Below, in pieces: positions 7,155 through 49,783 of a stretch of DNA of 64,000 nucleotides (the first letter of the stretch is position 1; each line of letters starts with the position of its first letter). The DNA comes from Candidatus Uhrbacteria bacterium (GTDB lineage Bacteria; Patescibacteriota; Patescibacteriia; UBA9934; GWF2-40-263), in contig JACPHU010000009.1 of the NCBI GenBank assembly GCA_016188495.1, positions 13,650-77,649 on the forward strand. Reading direction: 5' to 3'. The position numbers were made by a program, and so were the translations under genes. The notes below the pieces were generated by a model that was not told the DNA's origin, ran no database searches, and saw only the letters and a program-made list of their open reading frames with translations.

Positions 7155-7820
7155 ATGTCCGCATCAGACTTTTCAGTCGTTTATAAGCCGATGCTATATG
7201 GACCCGTTGGAGAAAGGCTTGCCTTCGTTTCGGAACAAATCGTTTCGAAGGTCTCATCTCGTTTTTCAGCGGTCTCCTTTGCGGGATCGTGCGAACAACT
7301 CCCTTGTCCTGGTAATGCTCTGTTGGTTCTGGATCGGCCTTGCCAGAGGCGGGATGTCCATGTTCTCCTGCCGATGGAGTCCAATAAACTCAAGGTGGAG
7401 CATGGGCGATGCGTTCTGATCCCCTTTGGTAGCGGAGATTCCAGTCTGCACGCCGCACAGGTGGGGGTACGGCTGGCAGCGGATTTTCGCCTTCGTGTGA
7501 TTTTTTACCACACGACCTGGCGCAAGCCTGGACTGGAGAGTGAAGATGGATGGAGTCATCTGAGCGATGGCGCCCGCTCCAATGCAAGTAAGTTCAAGGA
7601 ACTTGCTATGGGGCGGGGATTGACTCACGGTGTTTTTATCGAGATCGCTGCCCCTACCGTGAAACACGGGATCATTGGGGCGGCATTGCAGAAACAGGCG
7701 ACCATGATCGTGGTGGCGCGGGGAAGCGAGATTCGCAAGGGGTCCTATGTTGACCAACTTGCCGTGATGTCCCCGGTGCCCCTGTTTATCGTGGCCGATT
7801 CAAAGAAGAAGGAGAGTTGA
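7155..7820 (+). CDS. Universal stress protein (UspA)-like alpha/beta domain protein
   Basis: 221 aa with Usp-like segments VLIPFGSGDSSLHAAQVGVRLAA...IVVARGS...GSYVDQLAVMSPVPLFIV. GC-rich relative to flanks. Confidence 0.5.
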   Translation: MSASDFSVVYKPMLYGPVGERLAFVSEQIVSKVSSRFSAVSFAGSCEQLPCPGNALLVLDRPCQRRDVHVLLPMESNKLKVEHGRCVLIPFGSGDSSLHAAQVGVRLAADFRLRVIFYHTTWRKPGLESEDGWSHLSDGARSNASKFKELAMGRGLTHGVFIEIAAPTVKHGIIGAALQKQATMIVVARGSEIRKGSYVDQLAVMSPVPLFIVADSKKKES

Positions 7821-7821
7821 G

Positions 7822-9042
7822 ATGAGGCAAAAGATCAAGGCGTTTTTGCTGTCAGCGTACGGCCCTATGGCAGCAGTTGTGGCCATGTATAGCGTAAAGG
7901 GCCCTGTCAAGATTTGGGTAGGTCACGCAGCTGGCCTTACGGCGATCGTCGCCGACGGTTATCACAATGAATCTGATTTCACACAAGGTCTGCTGGCGAT
8001 GTGGCTTATCCGCCTGATCGCTGCGGCTGCAACGCGTGAATTCCCTCTGGGAAAGAAAAACCTGGCGAGCTTGTTCAAGGTGTTTGTCGGAGTATGTCTG
8101 GGATATCTGGCGATCACCGCCGGGTTTCAGAGCCTTCAGACGCTTTGGGACGTCTGTATCAATCACGGGAGTTTTCCGCTCAGGTTTTCGCAGGAGTATG
8201 CTCCCATCGCTTTGATCGTCGCGATGGTGAGCGTGGCTCTTTCCATACCTGTGAGCGAATACCAGATTCGCACAGGTGAACGCCTCAATAACGGCATTCT
8301 CATTGCCGATGGCAAAGAGACCCGCAGTGACGCCATTTTGGAAGTCGTGATTGTGGCAGGGATTCTGGGCCAGATGATCGGTGGCTGGGCGTGGATCGAA
8401 TATCCGTTGACCCTGGTCGTCTGCGTGTTCATGATCCAAACCGCTCGCGAGCTCATTGCCGATGGACTGGATGCGCTCCTGCAGCGTTCCATCGGCGAGG
8501 AACATGAGAATGCCATACAGGAAATTGTTAAGGACATGTATGGTGTTCAAGGTGTAGATCAGATTATCACCTTCAAAATCGGGCCCATGGTCATTCTCAT
8601 CATGAAGGTTCTCAGCCGTCATGGGGCCGAGGTTACCGACATCATGAAAAAGGCTATGGCCATGCCCCTGGCTCGTTATCTTGGCAAACAGGGGTTCGAG
8701 GATGGAAAATTCTTCATTCGGTTCGCTCAACCTGACCCCGATGCTCGTCGTCGGGCCGTGGCGATCGAACGAACCAATGGTATCAGTCGTGTTGCTCGCC
8801 GTGTGGGTGAAGCAACTCATATAGCCATTTGTGATATCGAGCACGACCGAGTCGTTCGCGATCCGGTCGAGGATGTTCATCGTCTTAATCCGGCACAGAT
8901 CGCTGAGTTTCTGGCACAGAAGAACGTTCGAGAGATCGTTTTGTCTGAATCTCCAATGGATTCGATGAGAAAAAAGTTTCGCGAGTTTGGTATCGAGATC
9001 GTGTGTGGTCCTTCCACAGATCTTTCTGTCTATGAACTTTAG
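7822..9042 (+). CDS. Cation diffusion facilitator (CDF) transporter with an extra C-terminal NifB/NifX-like (dinitrogenase FeMo-cofactor-binding fold) domain
   Basis: Six predicted TMs with the CDF metal-site pattern VADGYHNESD (TM2) and IADGKETRSD (TM5). Then a cytoplasmic CTD plus a ~110-aa tail IAICDIEHDRVV...NPAQIAEFLAQKNVREIVLSE...FGIEIVCG. Confidence 0.65.
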   Translation: MRQKIKAFLLSAYGPMAAVVAMYSVKGPVKIWVGHAAGLTAIVADGYHNESDFTQGLLAMWLIRLIAAAATREFPLGKKNLASLFKVFVGVCLGYLAITAGFQSLQTLWDVCINHGSFPLRFSQEYAPIALIVAMVSVALSIPVSEYQIRTGERLNNGILIADGKETRSDAILEVVIVAGILGQMIGGWAWIEYPLTLVVCVFMIQTARELIADGLDALLQRSIGEEHENAIQEIVKDMYGVQGVDQIITFKIGPMVILIMKVLSRHGAEVTDIMKKAMAMPLARYLGKQGFEDGKFFIRFAQPDPDARRRAVAIERTNGISRVARRVGEATHIAICDIEHDRVVRDPVEDVHRLNPAQIAEFLAQKNVREIVLSESPMDSMRKKFREFGIEIVCGPSTDLSVYEL

Positions 9043-9052
9043 GAGGTTTGTT

Positions 9053-9193
9053 ATGACATCGTGGCAGACGCAAGGTCAGTACGAATATGAGTACGACCAG
9101 AATGGCTATACCGGATGGTGCCGTTGTGTCCAAGGTCGTATGGCTGATGGCTACTGGCCGGAGTGGAACAACACTACCGGCGAAACACGTTAA
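9053..9193 (+). CDS. Small hypothetical protein (46 aa, Tyr/Trp/Cys-rich)
   Basis: ORF preceded by SD aggagg 7 nt upstream. Ends just before a terminator. Confidence 0.3.
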   Translation: MTSWQTQGQYEYEYDQNGYTGWCRCVQGRMADGYWPEWNNTTGETR

Positions 9194-9199
9194 GTTTCT

Positions 9200-9235
9200 A
9201 CCCACCCTCTGAATACGTTCACGGGTGGGTTTTTG
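9200..9235 (+). terminator. Rho-independent terminator
   Basis: cccaccc-(15-nt loop)-gggtggg followed by ttttt. Confidence 0.65.
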
Positions 9236-9258
9236 ATTGTCATAATTGTCATAATTGC

Positions 9259-9288
9259 TTGACAAAAAGGCTATTTTCGTGTATTATA
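9259..9288 (+). promoter_or_regulatory. Consensus sigma-70-type promoter (TTGACA-17-TATTAT), preceded by direct repeat gtcataatt x2
   Basis: ttgaca aaaaggctattttcgtg tattat; ~65 nt 5' UTR, then SD aagagga before ATG 9357. Confidence 0.6.
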
Positions 9289-9356
9289 CGCGGTTCGTAA
9301 AGATTCGCTTTGCGATAAGATTTGTTGTTTTACAACCTGAAAAAGAGGAATAATCT

Positions 9357-10646
9357 ATGCAGTTTCCTTCAGATCAAGCAATCCGTCAGGCTGTTAAAGC
9401 TCTCCATAACGCTCCCCACTTGGTCTATATCTATCAGACCGGTGTGACCGGCGGGTTATGTCAGTGGTTGTGGACGCCTGGCGCATCCAGGACGATTATG
9501 GGATTCAATTTTATTTATCCTCAGGAATCCCAAGATGAAGTATTGGGTCACACTCCGGATAACTACTGTTCGGAGCTGAATGCTCTCCAACTTGCGGCTG
9601 CAGCTCGTGAGGAAGCGACTCGCCTGGCTCATAAGCGTAAGCTTTCGACTCATCCCGTCATTGGTATCGGTATTACCGGAGCGGTGAGTACGGATCGAGT
9701 TCGTCGTGGAGAGGATCGGGTTCATATCGCGGCCGCGACCAGTCAGGGCATGCATGTCTTTACGGTAGTATTCCTCAAACCGGTGGTTGAAGAGGCTCCG
9801 TTAGTAGAAGATGAAGAGGCACGTACCGCACGTCTGCTTAAGGAGGAGGAAATTCGTGCTGCTCATCGACTAGAAGAGGGGAAACTCGCAGATCTATTAG
9901 CGCTCAATCAGATCCTCCAGCTTGCTGGAATAGATCAAGTTCCTCTTTCCGACCTGAGCCTTCTTTCATTGTCCACTCCTTATCTTTTTTCGGGTCAGTA
10001 CGCAGATGAGTTTACGTTGGGGGATACTGAAGTGAAGTTAGCCGACGTCTATCAGACCAACTCGGTCGATAAGATGTTATCTCCTGCAGGTGAAGTTATC
10101 GATATCCAAACAGATGACTTCCGTCTGGATCCTGATGAATGGATTCGTTTTCCCGGTTCGTTTGCTCCACTGCATCACGGTCATGAAGAAATGGCAGAAA
10201 TGTTGGAGCGTCAGACGGGCAAAAGAGTCGTCTTCGAAATTTCCGCTACGCACCCGCAGAAGGGGTTTATCGGAAACGAGGAAATTCTGCGCAGGGTCAG
10301 TCAGTTCCGTTATCGGTGGAACGTACTGGTTACGCAGGGAGCGGGACTCTACGTTGAGAAGGCAGAATTGTTTCCTGGCGTCCCAATGTTGATCGGCGCC
10401 GATGCCGTTCTCAACATGCTCAACGAGAAGTACTATTCGGATGGAGCAAAGGGAGTTCGTCGGACTCTCGAGCGTCTTTCCGAACTTAAAACTCGATTTT
10501 ACGTGGTAGGCCGAGAGGTTGACGGTCAGTTCTTGACTCGAGACGATCTCCCGATTCCGCCACGGTTCGCAGCTCTGTTCTTGGATGTGAGCTGTCGTAA
10601 CGACGTGTCATCCTCTCAGATCCGTGCTCAGCAGCAGGGATGCTGA
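9357..10646 (+). CDS. Fusion protein: N-terminal CinA-C/PncC-like (NMN deamidase fold) domain plus C-terminal NadD-like nucleotidyltransferase (HxGH) domain
   Basis: N-terminal half aligns to the PncC pattern (TGG...PGAS...GFNFIY..ES.DEVLG...IGIGITGA...RVHIAAAT). C-terminal half has FPGSFAPLHHGH (HxGH) and SSSQIRAQ (the ISSTxIR motif of NaMN adenylyltransferase). Confidence 0.6.
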   Translation: MQFPSDQAIRQAVKALHNAPHLVYIYQTGVTGGLCQWLWTPGASRTIMGFNFIYPQESQDEVLGHTPDNYCSELNALQLAAAAREEATRLAHKRKLSTHPVIGIGITGAVSTDRVRRGEDRVHIAAATSQGMHVFTVVFLKPVVEEAPLVEDEEARTARLLKEEEIRAAHRLEEGKLADLLALNQILQLAGIDQVPLSDLSLLSLSTPYLFSGQYADEFTLGDTEVKLADVYQTNSVDKMLSPAGEVIDIQTDDFRLDPDEWIRFPGSFAPLHHGHEEMAEMLERQTGKRVVFEISATHPQKGFIGNEEILRRVSQFRYRWNVLVTQGAGLYVEKAELFPGVPMLIGADAVLNMLNEKYYSDGAKGVRRTLERLSELKTRFYVVGREVDGQFLTRDDLPIPPRFAALFLDVSCRNDVSSSQIRAQQQGC

Positions 10647-10668: not shown

Positions 10669-10702
10669 ACCGATCCAGACGTCTGGATCGGTTTTTGTTT
10701 TT
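10669..10702 (+). terminator. Rho-independent terminator
   Basis: accgatccagac/gtctggatcggt (12-bp stem) followed by ttttgttttt. Confidence 0.75.
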
Positions 10703-10817
10703 GGGGTTGTCTTTTTTGTTTCTCATGTTACGCTGGGTAGGTGAATACACTGATCCCCCTTGTGTAACCCTCAAGGTACCCCCTAAAGCTAGACTTTAGG
10801 GGGCATTATGCATTTTT

Positions 10818-16553: not shown

Positions 16554-17090
16554 ATGGAGATGCATAAGGCACCGGTGTTATGTATGGTCGATTATGGCGA
16601 AGTGTTCTTTACCACTCAGTCCCTGGCTGATCAGCGGGGGGATGACTGGAGTAGTGCTCCATATGAGCATAATGCTGGAGATCCCTACGAACCCTGTTGG
16701 CACAACAGGCCCGACCAACAGAGAGAGGCCCCATGTCGGTGTGAGCGTTGCCAGAAGGATTGGAATGAAGATGGTTCCCCGAAGTGGGAGATCACTTCCT
16801 TCTGTATTGAGGGGGTCGAGTTAGCGGAACCCATGGATCTGCTGACTCGGCATTACATCAGTGTGAAGGATGTCAACCGTGGAATCGTTCCATGGCTGAC
16901 CAATGGTGTATGGGATGAGGAAGCGAACGAGGACTGGGATCCGTGGGGAGATGTTCCTGCCGTCTTGACCCCGCCGGCTGACGGAAGTCCACTCATTTCC
17001 ATCATGGCCGGGACCAGCCTGGAGGAGTTCACCCGTCTCATCGAGTCGATCGGTGGAACGGTTCGGTTGTATGAACCGACTCCAGAGTGA
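16554..17090 (+). CDS. Hypothetical acidic protein with a CxnCxCxxC motif
   Basis: 178 aa, preceded by SD ggagg. Contains CWHNRPDQQREAPCRCERC. GC-rich compared with surrounding genes. Confidence 0.5.
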   Translation: MEMHKAPVLCMVDYGEVFFTTQSLADQRGDDWSSAPYEHNAGDPYEPCWHNRPDQQREAPCRCERCQKDWNEDGSPKWEITSFCIEGVELAEPMDLLTRHYISVKDVNRGIVPWLTNGVWDEEANEDWDPWGDVPAVLTPPADGSPLISIMAGTSLEEFTRLIESIGGTVRLYEPTPE

Positions 17091-45570: not shown

Positions 45571-47286
45571 ATGGAACAGCCAAATACAGACATACAACGC
45601 GTTGCAGAGCTCGTAGCACGCCTCCAAGCCCGTTTTGGTGCTCAAGGCGTCGCGGATGCTGCGGGTAAGGGTGAGTCCCTTCGATACGTCATGTATGTCC
45701 GTAAGAGCACGGATACGGCCGACAAGCAGCAGCGCACCATCGGCGACCAAATCGCCTCGTGCAAGGAATACGCCGACCGCTTCGGGTTGCGTTGGACAGA
45801 GCTCATCCATGAGGAGGAGTCCGCCATGGTCTCCGATGGTCGTCCAAAGTTTCGAGCCATGCTAAACGCCATCAAGGCGGGCACGTTCGATGCCATCCTT
45901 GCATGGGCTCCAGACCGCCTTTCGCGCAACATGAAGGAAGCGGGCGAGATTATCGACATGCTCGACCGAGGCGACATCAAAGACCTCAAGTTCGCCAACG
46001 GGTTCGTATTCGCCAATGAACCGTCGGGCAAGATACTACTCGGTATCACGTTTGTCATGGCCAAGCAGTACAGCGACCAACACTCCCAAAACGTCAGGAA
46101 CGCGATTCATCGAAAGACCGCCGAAGGTAAGTGGGCAGGGGGCCGCGTTAAGCACGGCTACTACCGAAGCACCGCGCATTACCTTCTTCCCGACGGCGAG
46201 AACCATGAGCTCATCAAGGACGTCTTCCGCCTTCGTCTTGAAGGCACGCCGCAGAAGGACATCGCGGCATACCTCATCGAACGCGGCTATCCCGTCCAGA
46301 CGCCGCATACTAAGCATCGCAAGCTCGTCATCGACGACAAGTTCGTCTCGGATATCCTTCACGACGCGTTCTATGTCGGCGCCATGAAGTTCAGTAAACA
46401 ATTCGTCAACCTATTCGACAAGTACGACTTCGTGCCAGCAGTCTCGATCGACGACTTCGAGCGACTCTACAAGAGCGAGGGCGAGAAAATGGGAATCGAC
46501 CTCAAGAAAATTCTCAATCCGCGTGTACAGATCAAGGCCGCGCTCATGCAACAATTTGTTACATGCGGACGATGCGGAAAGTTCATGTCAACGGGCATTA
46601 CCAAGGGCAAATACTATTTTCGTTGTGATTCACCCAAGGCCGTCTTCCCGATGCATGGCAAGTCTACTCGTGCGAAAGTGGTACTCGACGCCTTATACGA
46701 GTTTCTGGAACATCATCCGCTCATCACCAATGCGGGCTACAAGCATTACGTCGCCGAGATGCAGCACATCCTGTCCGAGCAAAGCAAGGAAGCGGAACGG
46801 GAGTTAAAGTCGCTCGTCGCGCAACGTCAGCACGCCGAGGAGCGCATGGAGGACATGAAGGAACTTGCGCGAGGAGCAAAGGGTGACAAGGTGCTTGTGA
46901 AGGAATATCAGGCCGACATGAAGGCGAGCCTTGCAAAGGCAAAGGAACTGTCGGCACAAATTACGAAGCTCAAGATTGAACACCTCAACCCAAAGGAAGC
47001 AATCGCTACATTTGAAGAGTTCCATGAACTGTTTGCAAATCTTGCTCAACTCATACAAAAAATAGACAGCATGGCGGATTTGGATAGTATCATCAAAAAA
47101 ATCTTCATGAACGTCACGGTCACCGACCAAAAAGTCACTCAAATAACACAAAACTCCCCTTTCAGGGAGCTGTGTGTGGACGCCGATTCGGCGATGGTGA
47201 CCCTTCGGAGACTTCCTTGGAACCAATTTATGGAAGAGTTGAGGATGTGGATGCAGTTTCAGGAAATGTGTTTGGCTGAAATGTAA
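45571..47286 (+). CDS. Large serine recombinase (integrase)
   Basis: Resolvase catalytic domain YVMYVRKSTDTADKQ (nucleophilic Ser) and APDRLSRN, a recombinase domain, a Zn ribbon CGRCGKF...FRCDSP, and a C-terminal coiled coil. Confidence 0.85.
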   Translation: MEQPNTDIQRVAELVARLQARFGAQGVADAAGKGESLRYVMYVRKSTDTADKQQRTIGDQIASCKEYADRFGLRWTELIHEEESAMVSDGRPKFRAMLNAIKAGTFDAILAWAPDRLSRNMKEAGEIIDMLDRGDIKDLKFANGFVFANEPSGKILLGITFVMAKQYSDQHSQNVRNAIHRKTAEGKWAGGRVKHGYYRSTAHYLLPDGENHELIKDVFRLRLEGTPQKDIAAYLIERGYPVQTPHTKHRKLVIDDKFVSDILHDAFYVGAMKFSKQFVNLFDKYDFVPAVSIDDFERLYKSEGEKMGIDLKKILNPRVQIKAALMQQFVTCGRCGKFMSTGITKGKYYFRCDSPKAVFPMHGKSTRAKVVLDALYEFLEHHPLITNAGYKHYVAEMQHILSEQSKEAERELKSLVAQRQHAEERMEDMKELARGAKGDKVLVKEYQADMKASLAKAKELSAQITKLKIEHLNPKEAIATFEEFHELFANLAQLIQKIDSMADLDSIIKKIFMNVTVTDQKVTQITQNSPFRELCVDADSAMVTLRRLPWNQFMEELRMWMQFQEMCLAEM

Positions 47287-47436: not shown

Positions 47437-47991
47437 TTATTTGTTCTTTTCAAGAAATAAATTTCCAGTAAGAATATAAACCAAAATTATTTTTAAACTT
47501 AATCCTAAAAGGATCAACAATATTGAAAAACCAACGAGAAAAGAGATATCGTAGAACAAAATATATTGATTGATAACCATTTTTTCTTGTGTGTGTTCAC
47601 GTATAGACCAATATCCTGAGCAATTAGTCCCAAAGATTGAGCATTCAGTGATAGGGCCATCTTTAGAACTAATTTCAGAAACAAACTTAGAAAATTCTTT
47701 TGGACATTTTTCTTCAAACCAACTTCGATAAAGACTAATTTTGTTGGTAATACTTGGTTGATTAAAACTTTCAAAAATAAAACTTTCATTTTCCTTTATT
47801 TCATTTGGAATATCCTTCTCACTCAAAACACAACCTTCTTGAGCTGGAGATTTTAATGTAATTGCTTGATATCTATACTCATTATCGAATAACTTAAGAG
47901 AAGACAAAACTAATAGAAGCGATAATCCAAGATAAAAAATTTTTAATAATCGAAACCATGGTGAACTAAAAAATCCTTTTGTTGTTTCCAT
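47437..47991 (-). CDS. Hypothetical membrane protein in AT-rich cargo (~184 aa)
   Basis: Start METTKGFF. TM at the N-terminus and near the C-terminus. A 150+ codon ORF in ~28% GC DNA is unlikely by chance. Confidence 0.5.
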   Translation of the reverse strand: METTKGFFSSPWFRLLKIFYLGLSLLLVLSSLKLFDNEYRYQAITLKSPAQEGCVLSEKDIPNEIKENESFIFESFNQPSITNKISLYRSWFEEKCPKEFSKFVSEISSKDGPITECSIFGTNCSGYWSIREHTQEKMVINQYILFYDISFLVGFSILLILLGLSLKIILVYILTGNLFLEKNK

Positions 47992-48034
47992 ATTTTCATT
48001 GTATTGACCCAGATGGAATCTTTGAGAGATCACT

Positions 48035-49030: not shown

Positions 49031-49783
49031 ATGAAAATGATTATGAGAAAAGATTTAAAAGAAGAATTCGAATCTCTGATAAAAGAGGGATACGAAATTA
49101 CAAGAATTGCCGATGAAGGTCTAGAACAACACTCGGCTACCGCAACACTAATCCATGAAATTCATCATAAGTTTATAATGTGGAAACAAAGTGCGAAGGA
49201 TCTTTTAAAAGATGAGGCTAAAAATGAAGAATTAGATATTGGATTTCTATTTGAAGGAGATGGAGTACCTTTAATCAAAGCTGGACCAGAATACAGCGAC
49301 CCAATGAGTGAACGATCACAAAAATTATTTACAAACATTCGTATAGCAGCCTCCAGTCATTTGAGAAAAATAAAAGAAATTTATGAAGAGGTGGAGAAAA
49401 ATTTTAAGATTAAAAAATCATTTATTGTCAGAATTAAAAATATTTCTCTTTCCAAGGAAGATTGTTTATTAAAAATAAATGATGGTGAAAAAATAATCTT
49501 CTTTAAATCAAAAAAAGGAAAAGAAGATTTTGAAAAAGAAACCAAACAGTTTAAAATTTTGTACCATCTTTGGGAGTTTCGACAAGAAAAAAAAGGAAGT
49601 AGCATTTTAAAAAAAAGTGAAATTGTTACACTAAAAAATCTTCAAATTTGTAGTCAAAGTAAAAGTGCATCCGCAGTCAGTAAAACTATTGAGAGATTAA
49701 ATAAAAGATTTAAAAAAGAAGGGGTAACTATAGAGATAGAATGTGAAAATGAAAAATGTCGTCTAATTATAGAAAAGACCTAG
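49031..49783 (+). CDS. Hypothetical Lys-rich protein (250 aa)
   Basis: Long ORF in ~28% GC DNA. No recognised motifs. The C-terminal ~70 aa may be a winged-helix-like domain; weak. Confidence 0.45.
   Translation: MKMIMRKDLKEEFESLIKEGYEITRIADEGLEQHSATATLIHEIHHKFIMWKQSAKDLLKDEAKNEELDIGFLFEGDGVPLIKAGPEYSDPMSERSQKLFTNIRIAASSHLRKIKEIYEEVEKNFKIKKSFIVRIKNISLSKEDCLLKINDGEKIIFFKSKKGKEDFEKETKQFKILYHLWEFRQEKKGSSILKKSEIVTLKNLQICSQSKSASAVSKTIERLNKRFKKEGVTIEIECENEKCRLIIEKT

Follow-up and report, generated by a model that had tools for sequence, protein, structure and literature searches.

The nicotinamide mononucleotide (NMN) deamidase PncC, a member of the CinA-C family (PF02464), acts through a Ser/Lys catalytic dyad, which is S29/K61 in the Escherichia coli enzyme and S31/K63 in that of Agrobacterium tumefaciens (PMC5384747, PMC8231969). 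The mutants S29A, K61Q, S31A and K63A are inactive (PMC8231969, PMC5384747), but E. coli K61Q and S29A retain NMN binding with a micromolar Kd, K61Q binding NMN at about 100 µM and discriminating against nicotinic acid mononucleotide (NaMN) (PMC8231969). A tyrosine and an arginine (Y56 and R142 in E. coli, Y58 and R145 in A. tumefaciens) are required for substrate binding, which Y56A and R142A abolish in the case of NMN (PMC8231969, PMC5384747). E. coli also possesses two inactive PncC paralogues, YdeJ and YfaY (PMC3855486). The present analysis concerns a gene in a 64,000-nucleotide (64-kb) stretch of Candidatus Uhrbacteria DNA (contig JACPHU010000009.1; the whole stretch is called the window below) whose product joins a domain of the CinA-C/PncC fold to an HxGH nucleotidyltransferase. 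The open reading frame (ORF) lies at 9357..10646 on the + strand, starts with ATG and encodes 429 amino acids (aa); Pfam, homologues and an AlphaFold2 (AF2) model all bear on its assignment. The reading that we tentatively favour is that of a one-step pyridine-mononucleotide adenylyltransferase carrying a pseudo-PncC domain that would bind, and not deamidate, an NMN-type ligand.

Fusions of two domains of the NAD-salvage type have been described previously, among them COG1058-PncC (CinA), NadM-Nudix and NadR (NMNAT-RNK) (PMC3680494). The family reported here follows the same logic and is a new variant on these fusions, but it uses a different domain pair, of which one member is apparently catalytically inactive; the partner of the PncC-like domain is a COG1058 pyrophosphatase in CinA and a nucleotidyltransferase here. 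A divergent NMN adenylyltransferase (NMNAT) with HxGH and SxxxxR motifs that falls outside the classical families is known in yeast as Pof1 (YCL047C), in a report that does not mention a CinA-like domain (PMC13191266). Pof1 or plant At2g01220 may be linked to the present family, although a literature search yielded no support for such a link.

Architecture of the fusion protein and its family

The protein consists of an N-terminal CinA-C/PncC-fold domain (residues ~1-189; 9357..9923), identified by Foldseek, a profile search of PDB and residue mapping; a linker with short beta-strands in the AF2 secondary structure (residues ~190-260; 9924..10136); and a C-terminal NadD/NMNAT-like HxGH nucleotidyltransferase (residues ~261-429; 10137..10643), identified by PF01467, hhalign and Foldseek, all on the + strand. 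A preliminary description of this DNA, made from its letters alone, had proposed a PncC-NadD fusion, and its coordinates and all of its quoted motifs were confirmed: the translation carries QTGVTGG, PGAS, GFNFIYPQESQDEVLG, IGIGITGA and RVHIAAAT, collinear with the motifs of E. coli PncC, followed by FPGSFAPLHHGH and SSSQIRAQ. The Pfam comparison that it suggested came out positive for CTP_transf_like (PF01467; E 2e-7 over residues 265-424, with a score that exceeds the gathering threshold) and negative for CinA in the window protein itself (PF02464; residues 29-139, 14.6 bits versus a cut-off of 23.5). The CinA model TIGR00200 scored 11.8 versus a cut-off of 243, and the faint NadD, cytidylyltransferase and CinA matches found with NCBIfam models all fell far under the curated cut-offs. 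The CinA assignment is nevertheless solid at the family level, because PF02464 is matched by 18 of 36 homologues at E<=0.1 (best E 8e-6) and one family member (P0032), with 28.2 bits, exceeds the cut-off.

Structural comparison identified both domains. An AF2 model built with the 36 homologues as input reached a pLDDT of 93.1 and a pTM of 0.91. The top 19 Foldseek matches of this model in PDB are CinA/PncC structures, the best being 2a9s (E 3e-5, TM 0.61), with 4ct8, 6mr3, 5vu3 and 5kol among the further matches; a profile search of PDB also detected CinA with the N-terminal domain at E 0.003-0.006. For the C-terminal domain, Foldseek aligned 184 columns to the NadD structure 5deo (TM 0.58), with phosphopantetheine adenylyltransferase (PPAT) behind at ~130 columns (TM ~0.45). 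The combination of a CinA-C/PncC fold with an HxGH nucleotidyltransferase is thus real, as first described. A 26-aa helical insertion at residues ~143-170 of the N-terminal domain is limited to the closest relatives, and the linker varies in length across the family and is gapped in the family alignment (A1). Longer homologues of 480-600 aa differ just in the linker or in being extended at the N-terminus (P0016, P0056); Pfam searches of these proteins gave no extra domain that could serve as a functional clue, the additions being long linkers or TPR repeats. The nearest homologue shares 92% identity in the C-terminal domain versus 75% in the N-terminal domain, which fits a catalytic C-terminal domain with an accessory N-terminal one.

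When 1.84 billion representatives of clusters at 50% identity were searched exhaustively with a profile, 2,644 members were recovered at E<=1e-30 and, under the looser threshold of E<=1e-10, 4,952; among the matches listed, nearly all are 360-430 aa long and match over their full length. The fusion, called unusual in the preliminary description, is therefore not rare. In GTDB it is carried by Patescibacteria, by very many Planctomycetota (Pirellulales, Planctomycetaceae), by Chloroflexota/Dehalococcoidia and by metagenome-assembled genomes of Gammaproteobacteria, and a protein of Candidatus Uhrbacteria GW2011_GWF2_39_13, with 77% identity, is the closest homologue. A full-length copy (29% identical across 94% of the query length) is present in the 485-kb uncultured phage LR745208.1, as ORF 7932-9083 of the locus L095 (LR745208.1 74887-91948), with genes for an RNA ligase and an ATP-dependent DNA ligase at distances of up to about 7 kb and 2 kb, respectively; no NAMPT, NadV or NadE gene was found near it. 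A Caudovirales protein in BFVD also belongs to the family (E 2e-28). Source annotations are inconsistent, ranging over hypothetical, CinA family, PncC, NadD and nucleotidyl transferase. The family is large, uncharacterised and bacterial.

Active-site residues and candidate function

The authentic E. coli PncC was aligned to the family by three routes, a HMMER profile against PDB chains, hhalign, and hmmalign with MAFFT L-INS-i, and residues were counted per column in 261 non-identical members with E<=1e-30 to the family profile. The general-base lysine (E. coli K61, A. tumefaciens K63) corresponds to Gln59 in all three alignments. This column holds L in 133 members, T in 70, F in 26, M in 13, Q and V in five each and I in three, and Lys in none (0/261). 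In the hidden Markov model (HMM) alignments the nucleophile column (S29/S31) holds Thr28 in the window protein and T154/S58/A45 in the family, and in the MAFFT alignment an invariant Gly29, so that neither alignment yields a conserved Ser; the ESCTGG motif of PncC becomes xTGxGx. Other PncC features are shared besides the fold (2A9S, 4CT8/4UOC; E. coli YgaD) and the collinear motifs. The Gly-x-Ser of the P-II block (G42, S44) is present, Ser44 (E. coli S46, A. tumefaciens S48) being kept in 257 of the 261 members; Tyr54 (E. coli Y56, A. tumefaciens Y58) is kept in 255, and Gly118 is 98-100% conserved. Arg171, invariant at 261/261, opens the C-terminal helix near the position of R142 and is probably the equivalent of Arg142/145, which together with S46/48 and Y56/58 binds the substrate phosphate in PncC, to judge from an alignment-dependent match. 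The N-terminal domain is closer to the inactive paralogues YdeJ (5KOL) and YfaY than to the active YgaD. The absence of the Lys and of a conserved nucleophilic Ser, with the S46 and Y56 equivalents kept, makes a canonical NMN deamidase unlikely, and a ligand-binding pseudo-enzyme appears likelier. The comparison with the PncC active site, which the preliminary description had itself named as decisive, thus went against a deamidase at the Lys, the residues that match Ser46 and Tyr56 being kept.

In the C-terminal domain the key residues are H273, H276, K302, R313, K335, G347, D349, Y359, R386, D416, S419 and R423. The motifs H273-H-G-H276 and S419-S-Q-I-R423 are conserved in >96% of the 261 members; H276, K302, R313, G347, D349, R386, S419 and R423 are essentially invariant, and position 359 holds an aromatic residue or His (Y/F/H/W) in all of them. 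The motifs that were initially read as hallmarks of an NaMN adenylyltransferase do not discriminate, GxFxPxHxGH and SSSxxR being common to PPAT. PPAT (CoaD) shares PGSFxPxxxGH and an SSS-type second motif, and its profile scores over the N-terminal 56 columns are similar. However, hhalign of the family profile with E. coli CoaD covers just these 56 columns, the alignment ends after the first beta-alpha-beta unit with full-length similarity absent, and PPAT is without the GxD-aromatic and RxG elements. With E. coli NadD the same profile aligned in 156 columns that cover residues 5-192 of the enzyme (probability 80.6%, E 1e-5), pairing R56 with R313, the arginine after the first strand-helix unit; G107-x-D109 with G347-x-D349; P-T-W117-Y with (P/E)-K-Y359-Y; the RPG strand with R386; and SxxxxR with its counterpart. 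NadD models of NCBIfam were matched by 31 of the 36 members (best E 2e-8) and CoaD models by 24 (best 1e-4). NadD/NMNAT (TIGR00482/PRK00071; 1K4K, 5DEO) is accordingly the nearest known relative of this domain, as had been proposed. The family differs from NadD in having 'HPxKG/NVDKP' in place of PPH(K/R), in having mostly Tyr for the stacking Trp (the phage copy has Trp at the W117 position) and in that its C-terminal domain always follows a CinA-like domain and linker. Judged from these alignments, the C-terminal domain is most aptly called a divergent NadD/NMNAT-like adenylyltransferase that is catalytically intact and whose substrate would be a pyridine mononucleotide, and not a NadD orthologue. 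A second HxGH protein or a further NadD, CoaD or PncC homologue was not found in the window, which says little about the whole genome.

In the reading favoured here, the C-terminal domain would be a complete adenylyltransferase of the HxGH superfamily that converts NMN or NaMN and ATP to NAD or nicotinic acid adenine dinucleotide (NaAD) and pyrophosphate. The loss of the Ser/Lys dyad while Ser44 and Tyr54 are kept leads us to read the N-terminal domain as a binding module and not a deamidase, that is, a non-hydrolytic mononucleotide-binding domain that may serve in substrate capture or allosteric sensing. Gln59 of the window protein matches the engineered K61Q form of E. coli PncC, an inactive and selective NMN binder. 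The net reaction would be a one-step adenylylation of an NAD precursor. The channel from deamidase to adenylyltransferase envisaged in the preliminary description would not operate on present evidence. Several observations weigh against this reading. The basic residues R114, R117, R121 and K141 are conserved in the family and have no PncC counterpart, a hint that the ligand is more negative than NMN or that the base has been relocated. Thr28 is invariant within the close subfamily and is a conceivable nucleophile. The MAFFT and HMM alignments are offset from each other by one residue at ESCTGG and by several near T105 and R142, and the equivalences of Arg171 with R142 and of Thr107 with T105 vary accordingly. 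The equivalog cut-offs for NadD were missed (TIGR00482, 18.7 versus 112.45 bits; NF000843, 15 versus 240 bits), and identity of the C-terminal domain to NadD is ~20%, so the acceptor could differ. No NAD-metabolism partner was found in the ~85 neighbourhoods surveyed, and the searchable literature holds no characterised member of the family and no paper on a CinA-C plus NadD-like fusion.

Some of these observations would also suit a nucleotidyltransferase acting on a non-pyridine substrate, such as a phosphorylated ribosyl or cofactor intermediate or an ADP-ribose-derived compound, with the CinA-like domain binding this substrate or a regulatory nucleotide and the likeness to NadD reflecting the superfamily fold. 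All NadD/NMNAT equivalog cut-offs are missed by far, PPAT and NadD are near-equal and equally weak in the profile search of PDB (E 1e-4 to 4e-4), NAD genes are nowhere in the neighbourhoods, and the extra Arg and Lys residues of the N-terminal domain would fit a different ligand. The family also coexists with large genomes, for example in Planctomycetota, that are assumed to have a canonical nadD. Against this, the alignment to NadD extends over the full length and includes the GxD, W117-aromatic and RxG elements that PPAT lacks, and the N-terminal domain keeps the Tyr and Ser of PncC; we regard a non-pyridine substrate as possible, if rather unlikely. A bolder form of the favoured reading would make the family an unrecognised NAD-forming class, in which a pseudo-PncC, as a natural NMN binder of the K61Q type, captures or senses NMN and either passes it on to a fused, divergent NMNAT or gates that enzyme, or in which the domain is a deamidase that uses a relocated K141; we consider this proposal doubtful.

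The remaining functional alternative is the one from which the analysis set out, a true bifunctional PncC-NadD that converts NMN to NaMN and then to NaAD, with a rearranged catalytic pair in which Thr28 or Ser44, for instance, would act with Lys141 in place of Ser29/Lys61. Its fold and domain order are suitable. A hydroxyl residue is found at the Thr28 position in 212 of the 261 members, and Lys141, present in 232, aligns with E. coli S139, three residues before the active-site R142. Such a relocated dyad would have no known precedent in CinA proteins, among which inactive paralogues occur in E. coli itself (PMC3855486), and it has to be set against a general-base column without a single Lys, against the dead K61Q and K63A mutants, against the 45 members with Ala at the nucleophile and the Gly placed there by MAFFT, and against the sub-threshold CinA score. 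A bifunctional enzyme of this kind therefore seems improbable.

Transcription unit and genomic setting

A sigma-70-like promoter, TTGACA-17-TATTAT, was located at 9259..9287 (+), the -35 hexamer beginning at 9259. TTGACA-N17-TATNAT occurs once in the window versus 0.05 expected by chance, and TTGACA-17-TATNAT also precedes the orthologues in two relatives (L001 and L004). The 5' leader of ~65-70 nt (9288..9356, +) contains a hairpin at 9295-9315 and a Shine-Dalgarno sequence, AAAGAGGA, ahead of the ATG of the ORF. The hairpin is UCGUAAAG-AUUCG-CUUUGCGA (fold z-score -1.85); L001 has the same hairpin, except that the pair closing the loop is C-G in place of G-C. A second predicted helix of the leader brackets the ribosome-binding site. 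No riboswitch or leader RNA was detected in it, with zero Rfam matches and no consensus fold among four leader sequences, a number too small for a covariation test. An intrinsic terminator follows the ORF at 10669..10702 (+), with a 10-bp stem at 10669-10692 that includes six GC pairs and then a T-run. The 429-aa ORF is flanked by its own promoter and terminator and is therefore a monocistronic unit, in agreement with the preliminary description; under the favoured reading the gene would be expressed alone.

Several further elements were observed around this unit. A tandem 9-bp repeat, two copies of ATTGTCATA followed by ATTG, lies at 9236-9253 and abuts the -35 hexamer. No other copy exists in the window, and L001 and L004, whose promoters are otherwise conserved, lack it; it may act as an operator or have arisen by a recent duplication. 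Between the upstream CDF transporter gene and the promoter is a 46-aa ORF (MTSWQTQGQYEYEYDQNGYTGWCRCVQGRMADGYWPEWNNTTGETR; 9054-9193, +) with a strong TAGGAGG ribosome-binding site, and 3' of this ORF is a hairpin, CCCACCC/GGGTGGG with T5, at 9201-9234; the hairpin is kept in the Uhrbacteria relative L001, there behind a different upstream gene. On the other side, an inverted repeat, CCCCTAAAG...CTTTAGGGG, at 10780-10805 lies directly upstream of the uvrB start codon (10818) and may be a regulatory hairpin or an operator of uvrBA.

The gene is located directly upstream of uvrB-uvrA, both in the window and in relatives whose proteins are 77% and 55% identical, and it occupies the same site in four loci (L001-L004). 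The other neighbours in the window, encoding LytR, a signal peptidase, hisS, a cupredoxin and uvrC, follow the order found in the relatives. Between the window and L004, identity is 77-87% for uvrB, uvrA and uvrC, 54% for the fusion protein and 36-38% for the products of the two upstream genes, a CDF transporter and a Usp-like protein. The gene and these two neighbours are a fast-evolving block at a conserved position, not an insertion. The GC content of the gene is 0.51 versus a mean of 0.45 for the genes of the window (standard deviation (sd) 0.05; +1.2 sd), and its Karlin codon bias is 0.33 versus 0.31 (sd 0.10; +0.2 sd). The GC-rich islet of the preliminary description therefore persists weakly in base composition, with ordinary codon usage, and the suggestion that it is foreign is contradicted by this codon usage and by the synteny with uvrB-uvrA. 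No PADLOC or PHROGs model matched at E<=1, which leaves the accompanying speculation about phage defence without backing. The weakest alternative, a horizontally acquired accessory or defence gene in a foreign islet that acts in NAD homeostasis under phage attack, could invoke the 6-9 GC points by which the block at 7155-10646 exceeds the window mean, the full-length homologues in the 485-kb phage and in the Caudovirales protein, and the much faster divergence of the gene and its two upstream neighbours than of uvrABC, but it is largely refuted and hardly credible in view of the shared position and orientation upstream of uvrB-uvrA in both relatives, the conserved promoter, a codon bias within 0.2 sd of the window mean, the blank PADLOC and PHROGs searches, the housekeeping neighbours (hisS, signal peptidase, uvrABC) and the lack of flanking mobile-element genes. 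Under the favoured reading this would be a vertically inherited chromosomal gene of an Uhrbacteria-like (Patescibacteria) organism.

The neighbourhood survey covered 80 GTDB loci and metagenome loci (~85 in all), retrieved with a 12-sequence alignment and compared by ORF clustering, with Pfam searches on the recurrent neighbours. These neighbours are lineage-specific and include an oxidoreductase, an MFS transporter, a Zn-peptidase, thioredoxin, LptF/G, nuoA and a flavin reductase. In 32 Planctomycetota loci a conserved gene of ~413 aa lies on the same strand downstream of the family member (immediately downstream in L075, at 7186-8427). It has no confident Pfam match (a faint one to Peptidase_MA_2), is absent from the window, and may be an operon partner in Pirellulales.

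Other features of the window were also noted. At 7155-9042 the Usp-like gene (221 aa) overlaps the CDF cation-efflux gene by its stop codon, and the CDF protein has a C-terminal Nitro_FeMo-Co-like domain (DUF-type, dinitrogenase cofactor-binding) at residues 322-400. This pair also adjoins the family gene in L004 and L007, and the two genes are among the GC-richest of the window (GC 0.52-0.54), as is 16554-17090 (0.547). Two ORFs at 47437-48033 (-) and 49031-49783 (+) have a GC content of 0.285-0.29 versus the 0.45 mean, a codon bias of 0.49-0.52 and zero Pfam matches, and are far more plausible as foreign DNA than the gene described here. Beside them, a 571-aa ORF at 45571-47286 (+) has a third-position GC content (GC3) of 0.66, the maximum of the window, and a codon bias of 0.55.

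Implications for NAD salvage

Bacteria of the candidate phyla radiation (CPR) have very reduced cofactor biosynthesis, and their acquisition of NAD is little understood. With its NMN-binding-type domain joined to a NadD-like domain, this conserved gene under a promoter of its own is a concrete and testable candidate for NAD salvage in the CPR. The family also offers a natural case in which the fold of an enzyme, PncC, has given rise to a probable ligand-binding pseudo-enzyme, and the window protein carries a substitution of the K61Q type that has been proposed as an NMN biosensor probe. Assignment of a function to one member would correct thousands of annotations, as the family comprises ~2,600 clusters at 50% identity. 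If the bolder form of the favoured reading, which we consider doubtful, were true, the fusion would provide a one-protein, amidated route of NAD salvage in minimal-genome Patescibacteria, in many Planctomycetota and in some huge phages.

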